Source of the DNA: a virus
Lineage: Duplodnaviria > Caudoviricetes
Reading direction: 5' to 3' (one strand)
IMG/VR virus record: IMGVR_UViG_3300032247_001630
Location: 1-28,806 of that record
Length of the DNA: 28,806 nucleotides
The notes below the pieces were generated by a model. The model did no database searches. It worked only from the letters and a program-made list of their open reading frames with translations, and was not told the DNA's origin. The translations under genes and the position numbers were made by a program. Positions 672 through 17,041 of this stretch are shown here, one piece after another (the stretch's first letter is position 1; every line of letters begins with the position of its first letter).

Positions 672-1223
672 TCAAGCAAATAAATCTTCGTTCCACTCTC
701 TATGACCTTCTCTGAAAGCCATGTTTGACTGTGTTTCACGCACTTCCACACGATAGCACCATAGGCGTGCTGCCTCACCTGGACCCCAAAGTTCGGGAAT
801 GTAAACACCATTTACATATCGGTACAGCATGTCGCTGAGCCCTTCACAGCCCAGTCTAGGCAACACCACGATCTTGGCCATATTACGTTCTTGCAACAGT
901 TGGAATGTGGCCATTTCGGGATCATCTTCGGCCACAATAAGTGTATGGTCAAATTGGTCTTCCAAGGTCTTCTTTAATTCTTTTAATCCACCATAGTCGG
1001 CTGCCCAGTTGCGAACATCTAGATCGTTGGTGCCAAAATAAAATTTCATGCTAAAACTGTAACCGTGTATCAAGTTACAGTGACTATCTGCCCGCCACTG
1101 ACGATACGCACACGGAAATGCATCGTGGTATTCCTTGGTACTGGTGTACTTGTATACTACCGGTCTAGTGTTTGGGAAGTTGGCTTCCATGTGACCGATT
1201 AGGTCTTGTGTTGATGATTGCAT
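672..1223 (-). CDS. queD: QueD / 6-carboxy-5,6,7,8-tetrahydropterin synthase (PTPS T-fold family)
   Basis: CNLIHGY resembles the QueD Cx3HGH motif; also DYGGLK, FDHTL, GCEGLS and VEVRETQSN. AGGAG SD at 1231-1235. folE and a dpdA-like gene are in the same region. Confidence 0.85.
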   Translation of the reverse strand: MQSSTQDLIGHMEANFPNTRPVVYKYTSTKEYHDAFPCAYRQWRADSHCNLIHGYSFSMKFYFGTNDLDVRNWAADYGGLKELKKTLEDQFDHTLIVAEDDPEMATFQLLQERNMAKIVVLPRLGCEGLSDMLYRYVNGVYIPELWGPGEAARLWCYRVEVRETQSNMAFREGHREWNEDLFA

Positions 1224-1300
1224 GCTTGATCTCCTATGTTAAATTTTAGCATAGGCTTGCAGAATTTGTATAGCGGGATGAATGCCAGAAAGGCCGCTGG
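1224..1300 (-). ncRNA. Candidate cis-regulatory leader RNA (preQ1-I-like riboswitch architecture) upstream of queD
   Basis: Stem AGCGG(1298-1294)/CCGCU(1276-1272) with a 17-nt loop, then an A-rich tail AUACAAA, then hairpin CCUAUG(1255-1250)/CAUAGG(1238-1233) that covers the SD. A TAAATA motif lies immediately upstream (1306-1311). Confidence 0.5.
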
Positions 1301-1304
1301 ACTA

Positions 1305-1802
1305 CTATTTAGCACTGGGCCCGCCCGAGTCGTCAGGAATCACTCCAGTTGGATCCGAAAAACGGGTTTGCTCTTTGAGCGATTCGGCCTGGGCCACACG
1401 CTGTCTAAGTTCGCTACTCGAAAAACTGTGATCTCGACCGTTAAAGAACAATTCGATACTGCGTTTGTGACAGATCTCACGTCCGGTAAATTCTTTACCT
1501 TCGTACTCAACACCCAGGATACGCACATCAATCGGCAATACCAACAGCAAATCTTCTAGATCTTTTTCGGTATTGTAAACCCAAACTTCGTCCACGTACT
1601 TGCATCCGATCAACTGTAATTGTCGTTCTACTATGCTCTGTACCGGACGATTCTTGCTTGGACGATCCAGGGTAGGATCATTTTGCAAAGCACAGATCAA
1701 GTAATCGCAACGTTCTTTGGCTTCGCGCAACATGCTGATATGACCGGCATGTAACAGATCAAATGTACTGGCCGTAAAGCCAACTCGTTTATTGTTTATC
1801 AT
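1305..1802 (-). CDS. Cytidylyltransferase (TagD/RfaE-like, HIGH superfamily)
   Basis: FDLLHAGH (HxGH), ER...L..CKYVDEV and C-terminal SSSELR motifs. Confidence 0.85.
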   Translation of the reverse strand: MINNKRVGFTASTFDLLHAGHISMLREAKERCDYLICALQNDPTLDRPSKNRPVQSIVERQLQLIGCKYVDEVWVYNTEKDLEDLLLVLPIDVRILGVEYEGKEFTGREICHKRSIELFFNGRDHSFSSSELRQRVAQAESLKEQTRFSDPTGVIPDDSGGPSAK

Positions 1803-4779: not shown

Positions 4780-5529
4780 TTATCTTGGTGCAAAGTCCTG
4801 TTGTAGTTTGATATTGTCCATGAACTCTTTTTTGGTGCCTGGATCCGTGGCAAAACTGCCTTTGAGCACCGTGGTCTGTGTTAAACTACTGTGTGCCATG
4901 ATGCCTCTATTCTCACAGCAACCATGTGTGGCCTGGATGTAGACTCCAACATTTTCTGAATCGGTCGCCCGCATTATTTCTCTTGCAATATCATTGCAGA
5001 GCTCTTCCTGTAGTGTACCACGCCTAGCGCACCACTGAGCAATACGAGTGTACTTGCTAAGACCAATAAGTTTGTTGGCGGCAATGATCCCAATGTAAGC
5101 CACACCAGACACAGGCTGATGATGATGGCTACACATGCTCCGAAGTTCCGAACGCACAACCAACATGCCTTCGTATCTATCCGCTGAATCGTTGGGAAAT
5201 GCTGTTGCATCTGGCGCTGGATCATACCTACCTGCCATGATTTCGTAGAAATACATCTTGGCCAACCTCTTGGCTGTGCCTTTTGAATTTGGATCCGTTT
5301 CTCGGTCGATCAACAATCTGTCCAATACCAGTTCAAATGCTTCAGTGGCTTCTGCAATCAGTTGTTCTCGATCGCCTGCATGCAAGTAATCACTGATGTT
5401 GTCCCCTGCCCAAAATCTTTTGCCATCACGTCGCATTCTAAAGCGGATGGTGTCGGCCAGGTTGGCCGTTTCGTAGCCACCTTCGTCTATGTTGTCAAGC
5501 GATAATGATTCTGTCAATTTGTTCTCCAC
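4780..5529 (-). CDS. folE: GTP cyclohydrolase I (true start possibly TTG at 5517)
   Basis: TAKRLAKMY, SMCSHHHQP, IGLSKYTRI, QEEL and HGCCENRG Zn-binding/catalytic motifs. GGAG precedes TTG at 5517. Confidence 0.95.
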   Translation of the reverse strand: MENKLTESLSLDNIDEGGYETANLADTIRFRMRRDGKRFWAGDNISDYLHAGDREQLIAEATEAFELVLDRLLIDRETDPNSKGTAKRLAKMYFYEIMAGRYDPAPDATAFPNDSADRYEGMLVVRSELRSMCSHHHQPVSGVAYIGIIAANKLIGLSKYTRIAQWCARRGTLQEELCNDIAREIMRATDSENVGVYIQATHGCCENRGIMAHSSLTQTTVLKGSFATDPGTKKEFMDNIKLQQDFAPR

Positions 5530-5539
5530 GTTTTGTATT

Positions 5540-5568
5540 AGTATACGGGGTATTTAGACAGTTGTCAA
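5540..5568 (-). promoter_or_regulatory. Composite promoter for folE: sigma70 plus nested TAAATA
   Basis: TTGACA (5568-5563), 17 nt, TATACT (5545-5540). The spacer contains TAAATA at 5556-5551. Confidence 0.75.
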
Positions 5569-5571
5569 TGA

Positions 5572-6204
5572 CTAGAGTATTTTATAGGTTAAACTGGTTT
5601 CGAGAGATTGCAAACGCTTGCCCGAATAGGTTCCTGGTGTTGTAATCGTGTTGATCACTACACTGTTCATCATGAAGTTGCACCAGTTGGCAATCTTGAC
5701 TGTGTTGTTGGGTTTGCCGGGAAATGACGACCGTACGCCCACGCACACTCCTTGACCTAATTCTGTAAAACACAAATACGAATACGGACTGATGTGACAA
5801 AAATCTCCCACTGCAACTCCGTGACTGAATGTTACATAGTTTGTTATGGTGCAATGATTACCGATCACATTATCGTCAAATATCACATTGAAATTGTTTA
5901 CAAAGGTATTGTGTCCAATAACAACTTGATGGCCTATGATCGAGTTGTCACCAATCACACTGAACCAATGCAGGTTGACTTTGGCCAAACTGTCAATCAC
6001 TTGTTTTTTAAAACCTATGTTGGTTACAGCACACATGAATTGACGTTGGTCAAACCAGGCCTGATCTTTTTCCAACACCTGTTCCACAGTCAAGTGTTCG
6101 CAGGGTCGTTGTGTTCGAAAATATTCGTACAAGGTATGGTTGTGAAAAGTTTGTCCAATAAAACACAACGGCCGTTGTTGATCGTGCATCAGGTGGTATT
6201 GCAC
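5572..6204 (-). CDS. Hexapeptide-repeat (left-handed beta-helix) sugar O/N-acyltransferase, NeuD/PglD-like
   Basis: Repeats IGDNSI, IGHNTF, IGNHCT, VGDFCH, LGQGVC; C-terminal PGTYSG. Confidence 0.75.
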   Translation of the reverse strand: MQYHLMHDQQRPLCFIGQTFHNHTLYEYFRTQRPCEHLTVEQVLEKDQAWFDQRQFMCAVTNIGFKKQVIDSLAKVNLHWFSVIGDNSIIGHQVVIGHNTFVNNFNVIFDDNVIGNHCTITNYVTFSHGVAVGDFCHISPYSYLCFTELGQGVCVGVRSSFPGKPNNTVKIANWCNFMMNSVVINTITTPGTYSGKRLQSLETSLTYKIL

Positions 6205-6932
6205 TATCTGTTCTCCTTGCGATCGTATGCGCCGCGCGATTCATCAAACCAATACAGGCTGCGATGCGGTGTACTGAGTGGACTAGCGTTGCTGGTGTAA
6301 TAAAACATTCTCAATCCGTCTCTGCTGGCGTCCTCAGGACAAGCGATAGGAATCGGATGACCGTGTATCAATCTTGAATCATAGTTCCAGATCAACAATC
6401 GATTGGGCTTAGGACTCACGCGATGCAAGCACTGTTTCTTTTCAAAATCCCAGAATTCCAAGTCCCCGCCCCAGTTGGTATCCCAAGTTTTACTGATGTA
6501 CAGTATCATGCTAAGTGATCGGTTTAGATGCAACTGTTCATTCCAGTTGAAATCGGTATGCAATTGGAGATTATCACCATTTCCACAACGCATGAGTCCA
6601 GCACCAATCAAGTGCGGATCTGGAATAATTTTTTCTATTCCAGTAATTCCCTGCAACCATTCTACAAACTCACCGCTGTTGAAATTCAACACCAGGTCTC
6701 GTATGACGTTGCAATATTTCATGTTGTTGCATTCCAGCATGAAACTGCCGTTGCGAGTGAACTCGCTCCAGATATGGTCAGGAATCTGATCAATTTCCTC
6801 TTGAACTTGAGCCAACAAATCACTAGGTAAAAAATTATCAAACACCAGCCATGGCACCGGAACGCCATGGCTGTAGTCGATGGCATAATCTTTTGGGTCG
6901 TATTTGCTGGTTATTAGTTCTATGTCAATCAT
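6204..6932 (-). CDS. 2OG-Fe(II) oxygenase (prolyl-4-hydroxylase-like)
   Basis: FDNFL, HxD motif LHTDFN, WGGDLEFW, PNRLLI, distal His HGHP, and R..L.MFYY. Confidence 0.85.
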   Translation of the reverse strand: MIDIELITSKYDPKDYAIDYSHGVPVPWLVFDNFLPSDLLAQVQEEIDQIPDHIWSEFTRNGSFMLECNNMKYCNVIRDLVLNFNSGEFVEWLQGITGIEKIIPDPHLIGAGLMRCGNGDNLQLHTDFNWNEQLHLNRSLSMILYISKTWDTNWGGDLEFWDFEKKQCLHRVSPKPNRLLIWNYDSRLIHGHPIPIACPEDASRDGLRMFYYTSNASPLSTPHRSLYWFDESRGAYDRKENR

Positions 6933-7851
6933 GCGGTAAATGTCCTGTTTTTAGATATCGGGCCAGACACAACCTGTTGGTCTGATTGCCGCGATTGTAC
7001 TGTTGATACTGTTGATCACCCAGTCCAAAAATAACGCTGTTACTGGGCACAATACCCAACTGTTGGCAAAACGCCAGTTGCTGATCCGCCCAGGTTTGGT
7101 AATTGTAATCAACACTGTACTGTTCAATTAGATCCAACCCTACTGCAGCACCCAGTCTATTGGTATAGTTGGTTTTTTTGTGTATCAACAGGCTGTCGTC
7201 ATCATCCACTCGGGTCAGGCGCATACCAATACGTAAATTGGCCACTGGAAAAGTTTTGCTCAAACTAAACACGATGTCGGTGATGCAGGGCTGATCAAAA
7301 TCAAACTCAATCTTGGCACAGATGCCTACAAACGCACAATCAATCAAGACCGGTACACCCAGATCGCTACAACGATCAAGAATGCGTTGGGTATCCGCAT
7401 GTATGCTTCCGGTGTCACTGAATGGCAAACTGACAACCACAGCGTCGTTGACATCCAGATCTTGGTCATTGAGATAACACCAATTGGGGAAATAAGTTCT
7501 CCAGCTAGCACCGTGATACATGTATTCACCACGGAAACATCTAAATCTTCTTGCATGATGTTTGAGATAAAATTTATCAAACGATTCGGTAGTACCGTTT
7601 GAATAGGCTCGTACAGGAAACTGATCAAGATTTTGAAATTGATTCAGTTGACTGTTGACAACCCAGGCACTGTAGCGATCTACAAATTGATCCTGGATTG
7701 AGACATTGTCCAGAGCCTGATTGTGTACAGCATTGATAATGGAATCCTGTACAGATCTGGTCATGTCAGGATCAATCACTGCAGATGCTCCGCCGTAATT
7801 TAAAGTTTTGAGATTTTTCAAATGGAAATTGTTTGCTGTATTGGTAGTCAT
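6925..7851 (-). CDS. PLP-dependent fold-type-I enzyme (aminotransferase-like); start taken at ATG 7851
   Basis: NGTTESFD, LIDCAF, and Schiff-base lysine motif FSLSKTF...RIG. TAAGTA at 7862-7857 just precedes ATG 7851. Confidence 0.7.
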   Translation of the reverse strand: MTTNTANNFHLKNLKTLNYGGASAVIDPDMTRSVQDSIINAVHNQALDNVSIQDQFVDRYSAWVVNSQLNQFQNLDQFPVRAYSNGTTESFDKFYLKHHARRFRCFRGEYMYHGASWRTYFPNWCYLNDQDLDVNDAVVVSLPFSDTGSIHADTQRILDRCSDLGVPVLIDCAFVGICAKIEFDFDQPCITDIVFSLSKTFPVANLRIGMRLTRVDDDDSLLIHKKTNYTNRLGAAVGLDLIEQYSVDYNYQTWADQQLAFCQQLGIVPSNSVIFGLGDQQYQQYNRGNQTNRLCLARYLKTGHLPHD

Positions 7852-7855
7852 AAGT

Positions 7856-8815
7856 TTACTTATTGTACCAAGCCCAGGCATGCGTGATTATGTCTTCAAG
7901 ACCGTACTGTGGTTTCCAATCACTCACAGACATGAACTTGCTGGCGTCGGCTGTCAAGGTAGCTGGATCTCCGGATCTGCGTGGGCCAACGTTATAGGCC
8001 AAGTCTCGTTTGGTTACACCAATGGCACCGTGTAGTATTTGTAAATTGCTGTAGCCTTGACAGGTGCCTAGGTTATAAACACCACCGGGTATGGCCCGAT
8101 CTATAGCCCGGATATGTGCCCGAGCAAGATCTTCCACGTGTATATAATCTCTGATGCAGGTACCGTCTTCGGTGGCAAAATCGTTGCCATTTAGCACAAA
8201 TTGATCGCTACCATCACGTATGGCTTCGAGCACTCGAGCAATGATGTGTGTGGCACCAGGTTCTTGTCCGTGCCTGGTACGACTGTCTGCACCACAGGCA
8301 TTGAAATAACGGAACGCAACTGAATCAATGCCATAGGCCTGACCGTAACTGGCCAGCATCCATTCAATCATGAGCTTGCTCTGACCATATGGGCTGATTG
8401 GTTCTGCCGGATCCGTTTCTTGGCACGGAGTCATGACAGGTTCGCCATAGGTAGCGGCGCTACTGCTGAACACAATCCTAGTTGAGGTCATTTTGTTCAC
8501 GATCAAAAAGTCCAGCAGTTGTTTGGTCTTTACAAAATTGTTTTCGTAATAAACAGCAGGAGTAGTCATGCTGGGACCAACCAGGCTTGTACCGGCACAA
8601 TGTATGATAGCATCGGGCTGGAATTGATGTAGGCCAGCAAATGCCAGTTCAGTGGCGTAATCGCCAGTGTGCCACCAAACTCCTGGAGTTTTTAACAAGT
8701 GCTTGGGCGGTATCCGGTTATCAATGCCCAACACCTCGTGGCCTTGATCCACTAGATTCAATAAAGTTTGTCCGCCGATGTAACCTGCGGCACCAGTAAC
8801 TGCGACTCGTGTCAT
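7856..8815 (-). CDS. galE: UDP-glucose 4-epimerase (extended SDR)
   Basis: VTGAAGYIG, FSSSAATYG, SPYGQSK (YxxxK), RYFNACGA, DGTCIRDYIHVEDLA, RRSGDP. Confidence 0.9.
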   Translation of the reverse strand: MTRVAVTGAAGYIGGQTLLNLVDQGHEVLGIDNRIPPKHLLKTPGVWWHTGDYATELAFAGLHQFQPDAIIHCAGTSLVGPSMTTPAVYYENNFVKTKQLLDFLIVNKMTSTRIVFSSSAATYGEPVMTPCQETDPAEPISPYGQSKLMIEWMLASYGQAYGIDSVAFRYFNACGADSRTRHGQEPGATHIIARVLEAIRDGSDQFVLNGNDFATEDGTCIRDYIHVEDLARAHIRAIDRAIPGGVYNLGTCQGYSNLQILHGAIGVTKRDLAYNVGPRRSGDPATLTADASKFMSVSDWKPQYGLEDIITHAWAWYNK

Positions 8816-9807
8816 AGTTGATTTCCTTTTGAAAATTTTAAATTGATTCGATCCACATAGTGCATACCAAATTGGCCACTAAAGAATCGTTCTTGATTGT
8901 ACAGTCTGCGATCTCGGGTCTGTTCGTACAACTTTGACAGGTCTTGTTGCATCAACTGAGCCAGGCTGTCATGCATGCGATCAATCCTGACAACCCAATC
9001 AGACTCCAGATCATACGAATGATCGATGATGTCATCAAATACATCCACTCCCAAATCGCGCAGGTGCTGTATCGTCCCTAAACTGCCCACTATGAAAAAT
9101 AATTGCCCGCTGGCAACAGATTTCCAAGTTTTTTCACTTATAAAAATGGTATCACGCACCATGGTCTCTGTTATGATATTAACGTACGAAGCTTGATATG
9201 CATCGTGTTGTATGTTGTGAATTTCTGGGCCATTCAGTATTTTGGCATCAAGCACGATCGGTATTGATCCTTGTTTGCGTAATTGTTGATATTTTTCCAT
9301 GATATCAGGTGCAGCCATGGTGCCGTCGCCTGGCATATCAAGCCAACTGTACAAAGTAAAATCATAGTTTTTTTCTATCAATCGTAAAAAATTTTGTATC
9401 CTATGCCCATGGGCTCCCCGGTTTAAACAACTGATTTTGTAGATTTTTTCATGATCAAACACCAACGATCGATGATCTTGCCAACGTCGTAATCCAGACA
9501 AATAAAATGTAGGAAAGTAGCATATGGTATCTGTTTCTAACCCAGGGTCTGGACCCAGTATCACATGATTGATCTGACTGCGATCACACACCTGAGACAG
9601 TCGTAATAGAAAATATGGATCGGCAAAGTTTTGAGAAAAATCAAAAACGTTTACTTGATCTTTTGCAATTGGCTTTTGGCATTGAAGTTGTTCAACTGTT
9701 ATGTCAGGTTTGAAAACATCAAGACCTACTCCAGGAATATCTCGCTGGGTTATGTAGTTAAATTTGAAATTGAATAATTGATTTAAATCTACGTACCAAT
9801 TGGTCAT
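8812..9807 (-). CDS. Hypothetical protein, GT10/exostosin-like 'EKTWK' phage family (paralogue 1)
   Basis: SCLNR...HR, VNIITET...FISEKTWK, LRDLGVDVFDDIIDHSYD. The EK motif resembles the GT10 'Y.TEK' signature. Confidence 0.5.
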   Translation of the reverse strand: MTNWYVDLNQLFNFKFNYITQRDIPGVGLDVFKPDITVEQLQCQKPIAKDQVNVFDFSQNFADPYFLLRLSQVCDRSQINHVILGPDPGLETDTICYFPTFYLSGLRRWQDHRSLVFDHEKIYKISCLNRGAHGHRIQNFLRLIEKNYDFTLYSWLDMPGDGTMAAPDIMEKYQQLRKQGSIPIVLDAKILNGPEIHNIQHDAYQASYVNIITETMVRDTIFISEKTWKSVASGQLFFIVGSLGTIQHLRDLGVDVFDDIIDHSYDLESDWVVRIDRMHDSLAQLMQQDLSKLYEQTRDRRLYNQERFFSGQFGMHYVDRINLKFSKGNQL

Positions 9808-11006
9808 TCAATTTTTCTCACATGGTACTTGGCCTGACTCACATGATCACGATAGCGATTGCCTGCACGATTCCAAGTCTCGCCCGTGCCTTCCAAGATG
9901 TCCACAATACGATCCACAGTGGCATCAGTCCAGTCCGAGATTAGGCCTGTGTTGTGATGCAATTCGCCCAGCAAGTTTTCTAACTTGTGATAGGCATCAT
10001 CTATCGACCAAGGAATGTAAAGCCTGTTTGGGTCATCTGCAAAAGTTTCAGGAAAACTGCGATAAGCAGGATATAAAACATTGGCTCCAAGTGTATCTGC
10101 TTCACTGACAGTGTTCGAGACCCAATCCTGTAAAGCACAATTAAACAGCACACGAGTATCGTTAAGGAGAGCATAGTATTCATCTTTCTTTAAGTTTTCG
10201 TAAATTACCAGTCGACCTTCACTTTGCAATACTCTGGCACGAGTGACGTATTCGGGATTGTTACTGCGCAACGGACCACCTTGCATGATAGCAAATTCAA
10301 TGTTGCGATGATGTCCTTGGCTGTGATACATTTCGATCAGGTCCATGAAGAATCCCGGCTGTTTTTCTTGATCAAATCTGGCTGCGAAAGCCACACGCAT
10401 TGGGCGCTGGTCAAATGGTCGGATATTTTCACGACCGCCGATGCGTTCTACGACTTCGTCTTTGTTGAATGCCAAGCCTGATATATTGTAAATTGGCGCA
10501 GTCCAACCGGCAATACGCATATGAGCCACCATCTCTTCATTGGTGGCCAGTACACCTGTTACAAATTGGTTGACCATCTTTTCATACGTCGACATCCAGC
10601 CTGCCATGCCCCACACATGAACGAAATCATCAGGATCAATGGCTTGAGCAAGACAGCGAACATAAATCCTAGGACGCTGAGCAGGATCAACTTGATCGAG
10701 AATGTAAGGTAAGCTCTCGATACCGGGTTGAAACATGTCTTCAAAGTAGATAACATCTTCATTGGTAACTTCTCCATTTCTCATCATCTGCACCAGGTTC
10801 ATCATCTGGCTCATACCGAAGTAACTGCGACCATGTGCGTCCAGCACTTGCCCTACACTGATTGATTGTGTGTTGTCAATGGTGCTTCCGGGAACATAGA
10901 CCACATCTAAGCCACGGCGATCGAACACACGTCGATTCCATTCTGTGAGCTGTAAGGTGTAGCGGGCCTCGTACGATTCAAGTCCCATATAATATAATTT
11001 ACGCAT
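9804..11006 (-). CDS. GT-B fold glycosyltransferase (GT4-like)
   Basis: FAARFDQEKQP (R...EK), Y..LL...RVLFNCALQD...VSEA..LG..VLYP...SFPE, typical of the GT-B C-terminal nucleotide-sugar-binding domain. Confidence 0.75.
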   Translation of the reverse strand: MRKLYYMGLESYEARYTLQLTEWNRRVFDRRGLDVVYVPGSTIDNTQSISVGQVLDAHGRSYFGMSQMMNLVQMMRNGEVTNEDVIYFEDMFQPGIESLPYILDQVDPAQRPRIYVRCLAQAIDPDDFVHVWGMAGWMSTYEKMVNQFVTGVLATNEEMVAHMRIAGWTAPIYNISGLAFNKDEVVERIGGRENIRPFDQRPMRVAFAARFDQEKQPGFFMDLIEMYHSQGHHRNIEFAIMQGGPLRSNNPEYVTRARVLQSEGRLVIYENLKKDEYYALLNDTRVLFNCALQDWVSNTVSEADTLGANVLYPAYRSFPETFADDPNRLYIPWSIDDAYHKLENLLGELHHNTGLISDWTDATVDRIVDILEGTGETWNRAGNRYRDHVSQAKYHVRKIE

Positions 11007-12019: not shown

Positions 12020-12463
12020 TTAGATTTTGATACTGAGGTTAGGGCGAGAAAGTTCATATTTGATCAAGCAGCCATTCTCGCCATCTTCGGCCACTTCAAT
12101 CCAGACAGCTCGATTGGGATATCGATCTGCTATCTGTATATACAAGTCATCTGCGATCATTTCACAACTTTTGAAATCTAGTTCGAGAATGTCCTGGCTG
12201 TAAAGACCTTCTAGCCAGCGTTTGAACTGTATAAACTCAATGTCTCTGTCGTTGTGGAATACATCAATCCAGACCCGGAAATGGAATATGTGTCTGTGTG
12301 CATTAGCCAGGAAGCTGACATCATATTCACCTGGTGTACACAATAGCGGATCGGTAGCCGCCGCAGGATAGCGATGTATGCCTTCGCGACGGAATGTGAT
12401 CCAGATTTTACGTTCAGCGGCTTCGCGAATTCGTTCCGCAGTTTCTCTTTGATTTGATATCAT
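12020..12463 (-). CDS. dpdL: QueD-like T-fold protein, DpdL-like (candidate 7-carboxy-7-deazaguanine decarboxylase)
   Basis: EGIH...FLANAHRHIF (LxxxHRHxF), DIEF, SCEMIA, VAEDGENG: T-fold Zn-site pattern without the QueD catalytic Cys. Located in a folE/queD/dpdA neighbourhood. Confidence 0.6.
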   Translation of the reverse strand: MISNQRETAERIREAAERKIWITFRREGIHRYPAAATDPLLCTPGEYDVSFLANAHRHIFHFRVWIDVFHNDRDIEFIQFKRWLEGLYSQDILELDFKSCEMIADDLYIQIADRYPNRAVWIEVAEDGENGCLIKYELSRPNLSIKI

Positions 12464-14602: not shown

Positions 14603-15479
14603 TTATAATGTAATTTGCCCAAATCGCATGTCCATCGGCATTTGGGTGTTTAGACTGTTTTTTATAATTTATTGGACTTTGGTCAAGCCAGGCATTTACC
14701 AAATTGGCTCGATCGATATAGGGCAATGCCCAAGATTTATAAATGGTTGAGTCAGTAATTCCCACAATATTGTTGACACTTCCAAACCATTTTTTATCAA
14801 ATATCCACCCACATACCAAATTGGTTCTAATGGGTCTTGGCAAAGCCTGATAGTCTGCCAGTATTTCGATCCAGTTAGAATTACCTAACATGATGTTTTT
14901 ATTTTGTAATTGAGCGTACAAATGATCGTGCCATACAAAATTTTGCCCAACAAAGAATTCAAATCGGCTGTCAGCAACTGCCAACATATTATCAATTCTT
15001 TCAATCCATCCATTTTCACTGTCTAGTAAAACCTGTTCATAAAATTGATTATTGGCTCCGGTTTTTTGAAAACATTTTAAATAATCATACGGATGACTGT
15101 CCGGACTGGTGACATCTCTACCGTTTTCGGTAAGAGTCAACACAACAATGATGCGATTGTAATTGGTATTGGCAACAAGATCCAACAAATACTGACACGC
15201 AACCAAAATATGACTGTTAGACCACCCTTGGCAACCAATGTTGATCCAATCTGCTTTGTACCGAGATGATAACAGTTTTCCATATATTTGTTTTAATCGC
15301 AGTTCAGGGTCAAGACTGCCTCCCCAGGTCCAAGAATCTCCAGCAACAATGACCAGAGTAGGTGATCCAATAATTTCAGAATGGAAAGACCGTTCAAAAG
15401 ATTCATCTCTGCCGAGAAAATTTGTCTGCCACAACTCTAAAAGTTCTGCCCAATTATCAGTGTGCGACTCCGGATTCAT
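14574..15479 (-). CDS. SGNH/GDSL-hydrolase-like protein
   Basis: VAGDSWTWG (block I), NIGCQGWSN (block II), KHPNADGHAIWA (block V). Visibly AT-richer than its flanks. Confidence 0.7.
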   Translation of the reverse strand: MNPESHTDNWAELLELWQTNFLGRDESFERSFHSEIIGSPTLVIVAGDSWTWGGSLDPELRLKQIYGKLLSSRYKADWINIGCQGWSNSHILVACQYLLDLVANTNYNRIIVVLTLTENGRDVTSPDSHPYDYLKCFQKTGANNQFYEQVLLDSENGWIERIDNMLAVADSRFEFFVGQNFVWHDHLYAQLQNKNIMLGNSNWIEILADYQALPRPIRTNLVCGWIFDKKWFGSVNNIVGITDSTIYKSWALPYIDRANLVNAWLDQSPINYKKQSKHPNADGHAIWANYIINQLEQEQQT

Positions 15480-15504
15480 GCCCGTTGTTCCTGTTCCAGT
15501 TGAT
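15473..15504. repeat. Direct repeat copy 2
   Basis: gattcatg-ccc-gttgttcctgttccagttgat. Confidence 0.9.
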
Positions 15505-17041
15505 CCAATGCTGACTCATCTAATTGTACACTATCGTCTGCTTCAGTGTCAACTTCTGCGTCTTCAATATCAAACAGTAAATCAAACATGGGACGACCAC
15601 TCTTGGCTTTTTTACCTTTGAATCCTCTTGTACCAATGATATCCATCCAATAGCGATCATAGTGTTCAATAATGGCTTCGGCTTCAGCACGATCTGGTGT
15701 GGCAAATATGGCATCCACAATGTCTTTGAATCGAGCATGGTCCCCGTTTTCGTTACACATCATGGCCGGCCATGTGCCTGCATCATATTCTCGATTGGCA
15801 CGTTGTACTGCTTCAATGTGCATCCAAACATTGTGCCCCATCAGTAAAGCATAGCTGAAACTGTCCCAGGATGTTTTACCTTCTTTGCCAATCTTGTTTA
15901 GATCGCCTGGCTTGTAGATGCAAATGTCTTTCATCTGTAGTTGTAGGCTGATTGGGCTTTCATCAAAATGCTTGATCAGACCATCCGCAAGCACAGCTGG
16001 TCCAAATGGTCTTGTATCTGTGGCGTACTTCTTGTCATCCACAATAGGACTCATCCGATAACACCATTTTCCTTCGTGCGGCAAATCAATGTGATGATAC
16101 ACCTGTCCATTTGCTGTAGCAAGGAACGGACTGGCACAGTCGAAGCTGATGGTAAAGTTGGGATTTACATACCGGCGAACAGCTCGTTGTATGTCTGTGA
16201 GTAGCACTGCCCATTCCAATTTGCTTGTGCCTAAAAAGTGCATCCAATCATGTATACCCGGTTGTAACAAGTTGTCATGTCTTAGAGCTACCAATCTACG
16301 CAGGACCAAATGTACATCACACATGTTCTGTCCACCCATACTCCAACCATTAAAGTGTGTGTCTGGATACTGGGCAGGATCGCAGTAGTGTTTCATTGTG
16401 TCATACCACCGATCAGCATCCGGGTGATTGGCACCTTGCAAAACGTTCAAGACCTTCATACCGCCGTTACGGATACCCTTACGATGCTTCATGTAAAATT
16501 CATTGTTGAACTTGGTAGCATCCACAGCTTCCTGTAAAGTCTTGATACCACATTTTTCGCTGGCGTTTTTGTCATGTATAACCCAGGTTGGAATATCTAA
16601 TGTCATGCCATAATCACAAATGCCATCCAGCCATTTGACCACGGCTTCTCTACGCTTCTGTGCTTTAGGACAACCTGAATTGGCTTTCCAGTCACCTTCC
16701 CACAAGCCTTTGGCGATCTGGAATCCACCCGAGTCGCCCAGCATGAGCGTGTTGGGATCTCTATTGCGAACCATGTCTTCTGACCAGTCCGGCTTGGCAA
16801 GATCTAGATTGGCATGACCGCCCGAATACAACGACCATTTGTAAGGGAACAGGCCCTTCTGATCATTGAGCCAGTTCATCTGTTCCATGTCTTGAATGCC
16901 TGCAGGCATTCTAGCAGGATCCACATATGGTCCATTTACCGGATCACGTTGCTTGCCCACGAATGTGGCGTAGAAGCCCGAAATAGCCGGCAAGAACACA
17001 GCATAATCGTGTTGTTTGGCAGTTAGATTATCTTGTATCAC
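15476..17041 (-). CDS. dpdA: TGT-fold 7-deazaguanine transglycosylase, DpdA-like
   Basis: TGT motifs in order: DSGGFQ, MTLDIP, VLQG, GWSMGG, HFLG, SFDCASP. Lacks the CxCxxC Zn site of tRNA TGTs. GTGA-coupled to the clamp gene. Confidence 0.8.
   Translation of the reverse strand: MIQDNLTAKQHDYAVFLPAISGFYATFVGKQRDPVNGPYVDPARMPAGIQDMEQMNWLNDQKGLFPYKWSLYSGGHANLDLAKPDWSEDMVRNRDPNTLMLGDSGGFQIAKGLWEGDWKANSGCPKAQKRREAVVKWLDGICDYGMTLDIPTWVIHDKNASEKCGIKTLQEAVDATKFNNEFYMKHRKGIRNGGMKVLNVLQGANHPDADRWYDTMKHYCDPAQYPDTHFNGWSMGGQNMCDVHLVLRRLVALRHDNLLQPGIHDWMHFLGTSKLEWAVLLTDIQRAVRRYVNPNFTISFDCASPFLATANGQVYHHIDLPHEGKWCYRMSPIVDDKKYATDTRPFGPAVLADGLIKHFDESPISLQLQMKDICIYKPGDLNKIGKEGKTSWDSFSYALLMGHNVWMHIEAVQRANREYDAGTWPAMMCNENGDHARFKDIVDAIFATPDRAEAEAIIEHYDRYWMDIIGTRGFKGKKAKSGRPMFDLLFDIEDAEVDTEADDSVQLDESALDQLEQEQRA

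Follow-up and report, generated by a model that had tools for sequence, protein, structure and literature searches.

The window, the whole stretch of DNA that was analysed, is a 28.8-kb virus record (28,806 nt) in which the queD leader lies between two minus-strand ORFs, a cytidylyltransferase-like ORF upstream (1305-1802) and queD downstream (Table 1). The intergenic leader measures 81 nt (1224-1304); an earlier sequence-only reading of this DNA had rightly pointed to a gap before queD but had given its length as 80 nt. The letters which that reading quoted were all found in place, namely AGCGG (1298-1294), CCGCU (1276-1272) and TAAATA (1311-1306). The predicted queD product scores under the TIGR03367 cut-off and is 51% identical to the ACP17 protein that Cui et al. 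list as QueD (PMC10516641). We refer to it as QueD-like, its activity being predicted.

Table 1. Features of the queD locus and related genes in the window (coordinates of the window; all on the minus strand)
Feature	Position	Strand	Remarks
queD-like (PTPS) gene, CxxxHGY motif; candidate regulated gene	672..1223	-	Pfam PTPS E 6.7e-15; PHROG 2389 E 3.5e-35
Shine-Dalgarno (SD) AGGAG	1231..1235	-	7 nt 5' of AUG
P3, anti-SD hairpin CCUAUG/CAUAGG	1233..1255	-	strands 1255-1250 / 1238-1233; C1255-C1254 common with P2
Embedded sigma-70-like promoter: -35 TATACA, 18 nt, TG-extended -10 TAAAAT	1243..1272	-	putative function
P2 3' strand UGCAAGCC	1254..1261	-	A-U and C-G junction pairs, conserved U.C mismatch, distal pairs
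L3: A-rich 8-nt tract with pyrimidine end, then conserved unpaired UC (1263-1262)	1262..1271	-
P1 3' strand CCGCU	1272..1276	-
L2 = UC; C1277 candidate specificity base	1277..1278	-	putative role, by analogy with preQ1-I (PMC10622847, PMC11625349)
P2 5' strand GGCAUUCA, within P1 loop	1279..1286	-
L1: variable base, conserved C, U, then U-rich spacer of varying length	1287..1293	-
P1 5' strand AGCGG; last G pairs C1276, closes predicted pocket floor	1294..1298	-
CTAAATA, candidate phage late-promoter motif	1306..1312	-	7 nt 5' of P1; overlaps stop codon of cytidylyltransferase-like ORF
folE (GTP cyclohydrolase I)	4780..5529	-	start probably TTG 5517, after GGAG
DpdL-like T-fold protein, LxxxHRHxF; proposed CDG decarboxylase	12020..12463	-	55% identity to PA5oct QCG76199.1
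DpdA3-like DNA transglycosylase	15476..17041	-	35% identity over 80% to PA5oct QCG76197.1

The two PA5oct proteins related to the DpdL-like and DpdA3-like products, QCG76199.1 and QCG76197.1, are listed as DpdL and DpdA3, respectively, in the supplement of Cui et al., and that study is also the source of the LxxxHRHxF motif (PMC10516641). Among the relatives of the window that carry the leader element described below are some near-complete records, 353-383 kb in length. DpdL homologues were present in 18/25 and 5/5 long records, and no full-length QueC was found among 30 records, short partial matches being present in 7/25 (best E 1e-6) and 0/5. Since DpdL/DpdA3 homologues are present and QueC gives only partial matches, these phages probably use the DpdL/DpdA3 route. 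QueE is probably present as well, as judged by a match restricted to 35 N-terminal residues (E ~1e-7) in 5/5 records. The predicted route to 7-deazaguanine DNA would therefore probably be FolE-QueD-QueE-DpdL-DpdA3, with no preQ0/preQ1 synthesis of the phages' own. The window also carries a glycosyltransferase-like gene (2-613) among the deazaguanine genes, with epimerase, 2OG-Fe(II) oxygenase and hexapeptide-transferase genes (5572-11006) interleaved with them. Radical SAM matches number 7-19 per jumbo record, many of them clustered (G001, G005, G009, G010, G015).

The leader can be folded into an H-type pseudoknot (P1 + P2) spanning 1298-1254 on the minus strand, and the last two C of the P2 3' strand also begin the anti-SD stem. 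As proposed in the sequence-only reading, this second hairpin buries the SD, covering the first three bases of AGGAG. No terminator was found on the leader strand. Taken alone, the window leader folds no better than its shuffles (z 0.15 and 0.08). A search of Rfam, which includes the preQ1-I riboswitch (RF00522) and which the sequence-only reading had suggested, returned nothing for this leader at the gathering score or at E up to 10, and nothing for 13 related loci. Since the single leader folds like shuffled sequence and has no Rfam match, the support for a real element comes from the comparison of homologues.

Of 80 homologous loci selected by protein similarity, 74 contain the element, and the DNA preceding it on the 5' side is free to vary; among the six misses, four have no upstream DNA and two are degenerate. 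A second finder recovered it in 215/231 protein-selected loci with sufficient upstream DNA, from two QueD subfamilies, yielding 131 distinct aptamers; the conserved-base counts are partly built into the finders, a bias limited by the 93% recall on protein-selected loci. To score pairing, 145 distinct aptamers were aligned with MAFFT. P1 was 98.9% paired, with changes on both sides at pairs 1-3 of its 5 pairs, and its closing pair was G-C in 145/145 (in part a consequence of the finder). P2, with 1286-1279 set against 1261-1254, was 74.9% paired, length variants being misaligned in this count. For the two stems together, pairing reached 84.4% and the covariation score 0.264, compared to at most 0.075 when the register was slid. 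With P2 anchored at the junction and no fitted gaps, positions 4-6 were paired in 125, 119 and 128 of the 145 aptamers (shuffled maxima 74, 81 and 88, respectively), and partner-swapped controls reached the energy observed for P2 in 0/200 shuffles. The junction pair of P2 was A-U in ~1600 and G-C in ~280 cases in scans of the viral collection (estimates from partial scans), with A.C in 3 and G.U in 1 (full scans). These four mismatches include just one real leader, and the ORF downstream of it is truncated after 39 aa.

We also selected loci with a DNA pattern that leaves out the P1 5' strand. P1 was still present in 120/120 matched loci, of which 113 precede a QueD-like ORF by BLAST and 3 more do so with another start codon; these QueD-like ORFs (at least 116/120) are of 30-97% identity. 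On a tree, P1 pair 3 shows 27 changes of the whole pair and 27 of each single side, counts which are not clean independent events because leader labels are scattered over the QueD tree, with 41 changes of platform for 134 rows. A DNA-only element, such as a promoter or operator, was rejected, as two interleaved stems covary. Lack of covariation in homologous leaders was what the sequence-only reading had set against its own proposal; both stems do covary. Taken together, these comparisons make it virtually certain that a conserved H-type pseudoknot exists.

The same reading had placed the pseudoknot in another register, between UGGCAU (1287-1282) and AUGCUA (1252-1247). This duplex is possible in the window sequence (-6.1 kcal/mol), but across homologues the register is just 38.7% paired, against the 74.9% of the true P2, and the pairing was given up. 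It is 6/6 complementary in just 13 of 66 AUGCU-bearing leaders, and partner-swapped controls reach its observed energy in 12/200 shuffles. AUGCUA is part of the hairpin stem and of an extended -10 promoter-like motif of one leader family only, and its constancy in this family, that of the window, would be explained by the predicted internal promoter. The broader proposal of a riboswitch-like pseudoknot competing with an SD-burying hairpin holds up in that the knot is conserved, its ligand being probably other than preQ1.

Beyond the paired positions, several bases are conserved. Among the 131 protein-selected aptamers, the first base of L1 is variable (A55/U45/C31), the second is C in 131/131 and the third U in 130/131, the finder awarding a bonus for CU. 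L2 reads UC in 81, AC in 20, CC in 13 and takes 3-nt forms in 17, and its final base is C in every aptamer found (partly by construction). The U.C mismatch within P2 is kept in 130/131. These unpaired positions (L1 C/U, the final C of L2, the A residues and terminal UC of L3 and the U.C mismatch) cluster at the P1/P2 junction.

The element is widespread in uncultured jumbo phages, and cellular genomes are without it, bar seven phage-like MAG contigs among 79 pattern matches. A model search identified a single strong copy per genome in 21/21 long records, and ~1900 stored viral stretches match two exact patterns. These 79 matches, from GTDB genomes, comprise 72 without the element and 7 with it. 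The 7 carriers are short MAG contigs with phage-like neighbours, 6 with the element before a QueD-like ORF and 1 cut at the start codon, and are read as mis-binned phage DNA. The queD leaders of the cultured phages ACP17, Paride and Phosso gave no real match to the element, weak model hits lying inside other genes.

QueD subfamilies only 30-50% alike share the same leader. Near-identical leaders front different subfamilies (L081 and L175; L044 and L165), which suggests that coding regions have been swapped behind a fixed leader; in L044 the element heads a tandem pair of QueD paralogues. At three loci (L155, L166, L571) it stands before other genes, a cupin-like ORF, assigned by eye, and two unidentified ORFs, and at L185 before a distant QueD-like ORF, also assigned by eye; all four may have been inserted at the head of the operon. 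Some queD homologues, a minority, are without the element (L739, L740, L750, L757, L761, L764, L773) and mostly have a sigma-70-like promoter near the start codon instead.

Promoter-like motifs flank the element closely. Among 158 distinct upstream regions, TAA[AG]TA, a candidate phage late-promoter motif by analogy with that of T4, lies at most 14 nt from P1 in 82, compared to 19/158 in a slice further upstream. A sigma-70-like promoter ends at most 12 nt from P1 in 44/158; both motifs occur in 4 regions and neither in 36, so that the element is directly 3' of one or the other in 122/158. Because these motifs end just upstream of P1, the element likely begins the transcript. Within the window, CTAAATA itself occurs about as often as expected (3 against 2.5).

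A second promoter-like signal lies inside the leader. In the window's leader family, L3 contains a hexamer similar to a -35 box, and the loop of the hairpin contains a TG-extended TAnnnT at a spacing of 17-18 nt; TAnnnT is present in 63/66 and a -35 match of 4-5 out of 6 in 63/66, although common ancestry within the family may have raised these counts. Leaders of family 2 match the -35 at 1-2 of 6 positions in 30/31 cases. As predicted from its sequence, such an internal promoter would start a short mRNA near the SD, without the switch, and in the window's family would thereby circumvent the switch at an early stage of infection. Its conservation within the hairpin (63/66) would also suit an element with no sensor at all, in which the knot is constitutive or depends on temperature or Mg2+ and promoter choice sets the timing, through a T4-style SD hairpin and internal-promoter bypass. 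P2 is long (7-8 bp), sufficient to form unaided, and might indeed form without ligand. We nevertheless hold a sensor-free leader to be very unlikely: knot and competition are kept in 79/145 leaders, of other designs, without a full internal promoter, the U.C mismatch and the UC that follows L3 are conserved although neither serves pairing, and the link to two consecutive pathway genes would be left unexplained.

The pairing of the P2 3' strand bears on the direction of a ligand-operated switch. In the window, C1255-C1254 pair either with the loop GG, in P2, or with the SD GG, in P3. The P2 3' strand pairs the SD/AUG region in 138/145 leaders, which fall into at least three unrelated designs; the other leader designs have different sequences, with the P2 3' strand paired to the start codon or the SD. 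In a set of 245 distinct leaders, the aptamer segment that chiefly pairs with the ribosome site is the P2 3' strand in 180 and the L3-UC end in 37 (217/245). Formation of the aptamer lowered the computed cost of opening the ribosome-binding site (RBS) from 7.2 to 3.7 kcal/mol over these 245 leaders, a drop that is partly trivial as removing pairing partners lowers the cost anyway; for the window it is smaller (6.3 to 4.7 kcal/mol). In the free fold, the cost was 7.2 compared to 6.5 kcal/mol for a shuffled-upstream control, which 143/245 leaders exceed. Since the same competition has been redesigned repeatedly across leader designs, we read it as an ON arrangement, in which formation of the knot likely would free the ribosome site, as modelled here.

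A sister element was found in 55/80 protein-selected folE loci. Its parts are a short stem, a loop with UCC-[AU]C at its end and, ahead of the SD, a tail that closes with AAC-UC. A folE DNA pattern gave 120 matches, with a stem of at least 3 bp in 85 and 77 located before FolE; 3 further matches precede an ORF that is apparently just before folE. Its P1 covaries, the second pair being A-U in 30, U-A in 24, G-C in 2 and C-G in 2 (n = 58), and its P2, formed by UCC with the SD GGA, is invariant across loci. The closing pair is reversed, C-G in 54/58 folE elements versus G-C in queD, while the A-Y-U-C end of L3 is common to both elements. We link the two because the span from the L2 C to the UC is nearly equal in a mini queD form (8-9 nt) and in the folE form (9 nt in 42/49). 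Judging solely by complementarity, the folE knot would bury the SD and act as an OFF switch. Both elements occur together in 7/19 folE-holding records (8 with one variant), and the sister element is absent from the window's own folE leader.

Several further observations concern folE leaders. The folE-type element also stands before an ORF of 120-130 aa and unknown function, apparently directly before folE (L437, L443, L464, L525). The promoter region of the window's folE (5517-5570, minus strand) shows sigma-70-like -35 and -10 boxes with CTAAATA nested within the spacer, a layout common among many folE relatives. In another FolE clade (35% identical; L551/L552, records G015/G020), the leader has a long-stem hairpin whose 6-nt loop is identical in both cases; an A-rich tract comes next, and this is possibly a third motif.

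We find it fairly probable that the queD element is a small-molecule ON switch and, if so, a pterin-type ligand is somewhat favoured. The reading that combines both, an ON riboswitch for queD translation sensing 7,8-dihydroneopterin triphosphate (H2NTP) or a related reduced pterin or folate, is our working model and is put forward tentatively, on sequence grounds. Without ligand, C1255-C1254 would pair with the SD and queD translation would be low. A ligand bound at the P1/P2 junction, with C1277 and U1263 as candidate contacts, would stabilise P2 and draw C1255-C1254 off the SD, so that queD translation would rise. H2NTP, the FolE product, would feed both host folate synthesis and QueD. With folE OFF and queD ON, the ligand would be this shared intermediate or a pterin or folate that tracks it, and closing of the folE knot together with opening of the queD leader by its knot would direct pterin to 7-deazaguanine DNA modification only in surplus. 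A valve of this type, served by an essentially phage-only H2NTP or reduced-pterin riboswitch class in jumbo phages, is conceivable, with greater reserve than the queD switch itself. By analogy, the cytosine in L2 would match a guanine-like face, and pterins present such a face too. In terms of the modelled ON wiring, the downstream deazaguanines preQ0, CDG and 7-deazaguanine fit poorly, H2NTP or a related pterin better.

The L2 cytosine, the G-C floor and the preQ1-I-like plan (PMC10622847, PMC11625349) are also what one would expect if a guanine-like base, whether guanine set free through DpdA base exchange, 7-deazaguanine, CDG or a preQ-type base, stabilised the knot and opened the SD. The phages have DpdA3-like and DpdL-like genes, and switching on by released guanine would presumably match supply to demand. 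An end product should rather turn queD off, whereas the predicted wiring is ON, and it is difficult to see why a guanine or GTP signal should close folE and open queD. The uridine in L1 and the terminal adenine of L3 that would read preQ1 are absent, and the 30 records hold no full-length QueC. A guanine-like ligand is thus unlikely.

Phage leaders bound by the phage's own proteins are well known, as in the pseudoknot of T4 gene 32. A phage or host protein (FolE, QueD, DpdL, a RegA-like repressor or ribosomal S1) might likewise bind or unfold the knot and set folE and queD translation, and the conserved loop bases would suit protein contact equally. One and the same leader before QueD subfamilies 30-50% alike argues against autogenous binding, however; opposite wiring of folE and queD is simpler with one metabolite, and the conserved unpaired bases gather at the helix junction. 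We therefore consider a protein operator distinctly unlikely, and retain the pterin-sensing ON switch as the preferred reading in the comparisons that follow.

The element resembles preQ1-I riboswitches as a small H-type pseudoknot with a 5-bp P1 that has a closing G-C pair, a UC or AC leading into the P1 3' strand, an A-rich L3 and a site before a 7-deazaguanine pathway gene. This bears out the preQ1-I layout put forward in the sequence-only reading (5-bp stem, loop-ending C, A-rich tail); the initial U of the loop, whose absence that reading had noted, and the terminal L3 A of preQ1-I are missing. In preQ1-I, a U (UU in types I/III) directly 3' of the P1 5' strand reads the minor-groove edge of the ligand (PMC10622847, PMC11625349); our element has A/U/C then CU at this place. 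Its L3 ends in Y-U-C instead of an adenine next to P2, and its P2 has 7-8 bp with a conserved U.C mismatch, the SD lying outside P2. It is predicted to be ON, whereas the bound preQ1-I knot buries the SD or favours a terminator, and it is phage-borne, located before queD and without Rfam match. On these sequence features, it is a putative aptamer of preQ1-I shape and not a preQ1-I member.

THF-II (the folE motif of Rhizobiales) turns folE translation OFF and binds the pterin ligand class proposed here. According to PMC9881143 and PMC6800512, C22 and U44 read the pterin ring, and the ligands include dihydroneopterin, H4-biopterin, DHF and THF, but also 7-deazaguanine. The conserved unpaired C1277 and U1263 of our element resemble this C-plus-U pattern and may play a similar role; because THF-II binds 7-deazaguanine too, such a pocket cannot separate pterins from purines. 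The architectures differ, THF-II having two stacked helices, an internal-loop pocket, the RBS in P1 and no pseudoknot, and no THF-II sequence match was obtained in the Rfam scans of the window leader and 13 related loci. No ON form of THF-II or link to queD was found in the accessible parts of PMC6800512 and PMC9881143.

Among anonymous phage RNA candidates, DNAVirus_1239 and DNAVirus_406 lie at most 25 nt upstream of folE (Fremin et al. 2023, PMC10690425) and, judged by their table entries, may be the folE sister element. The Fremin table, as far as accessible, has no candidate before PTPS/QueD; our element ends ~30 nt from the AUG and could fall outside it. No description of the element was found in a literature search that took in few subscription papers. 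The dDG system of Cui, Hutinet et al. 2023 (PMC10516641) has the same set of FolE, QueD, QueE-like, DpdL and DpdA3 without QueC. In this system QueD, whose gene the element would govern, is the second step, and the accessible text describes no RNA-level control.

Riboswitches are described as rare in phages, PMC9004378 naming switches of the glutamine type and one putative psbA switch. The queD element displays what generally characterises a riboswitch, a covarying conserved structure, placement in 5' leaders of linked genes and a computed expression platform. As far as its sequence can tell, it is an uncatalogued, phage-specific RNA pseudoknot with predicted riboswitch wiring. If our model is true, an RNA valve would divide a single intermediate between the folate of the host and 7-deazaguanine modification of DNA, and the smallest forms of the element (~25 nt) would rank with the smallest aptamers in nature. 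Were the element to bind pterins, phages would meter DNA-modification flux against host folate and, in relation to the known systems, the element would found a new class of aptamer built on the scaffold of preQ1-I and wired both ways on consecutive enzymes.
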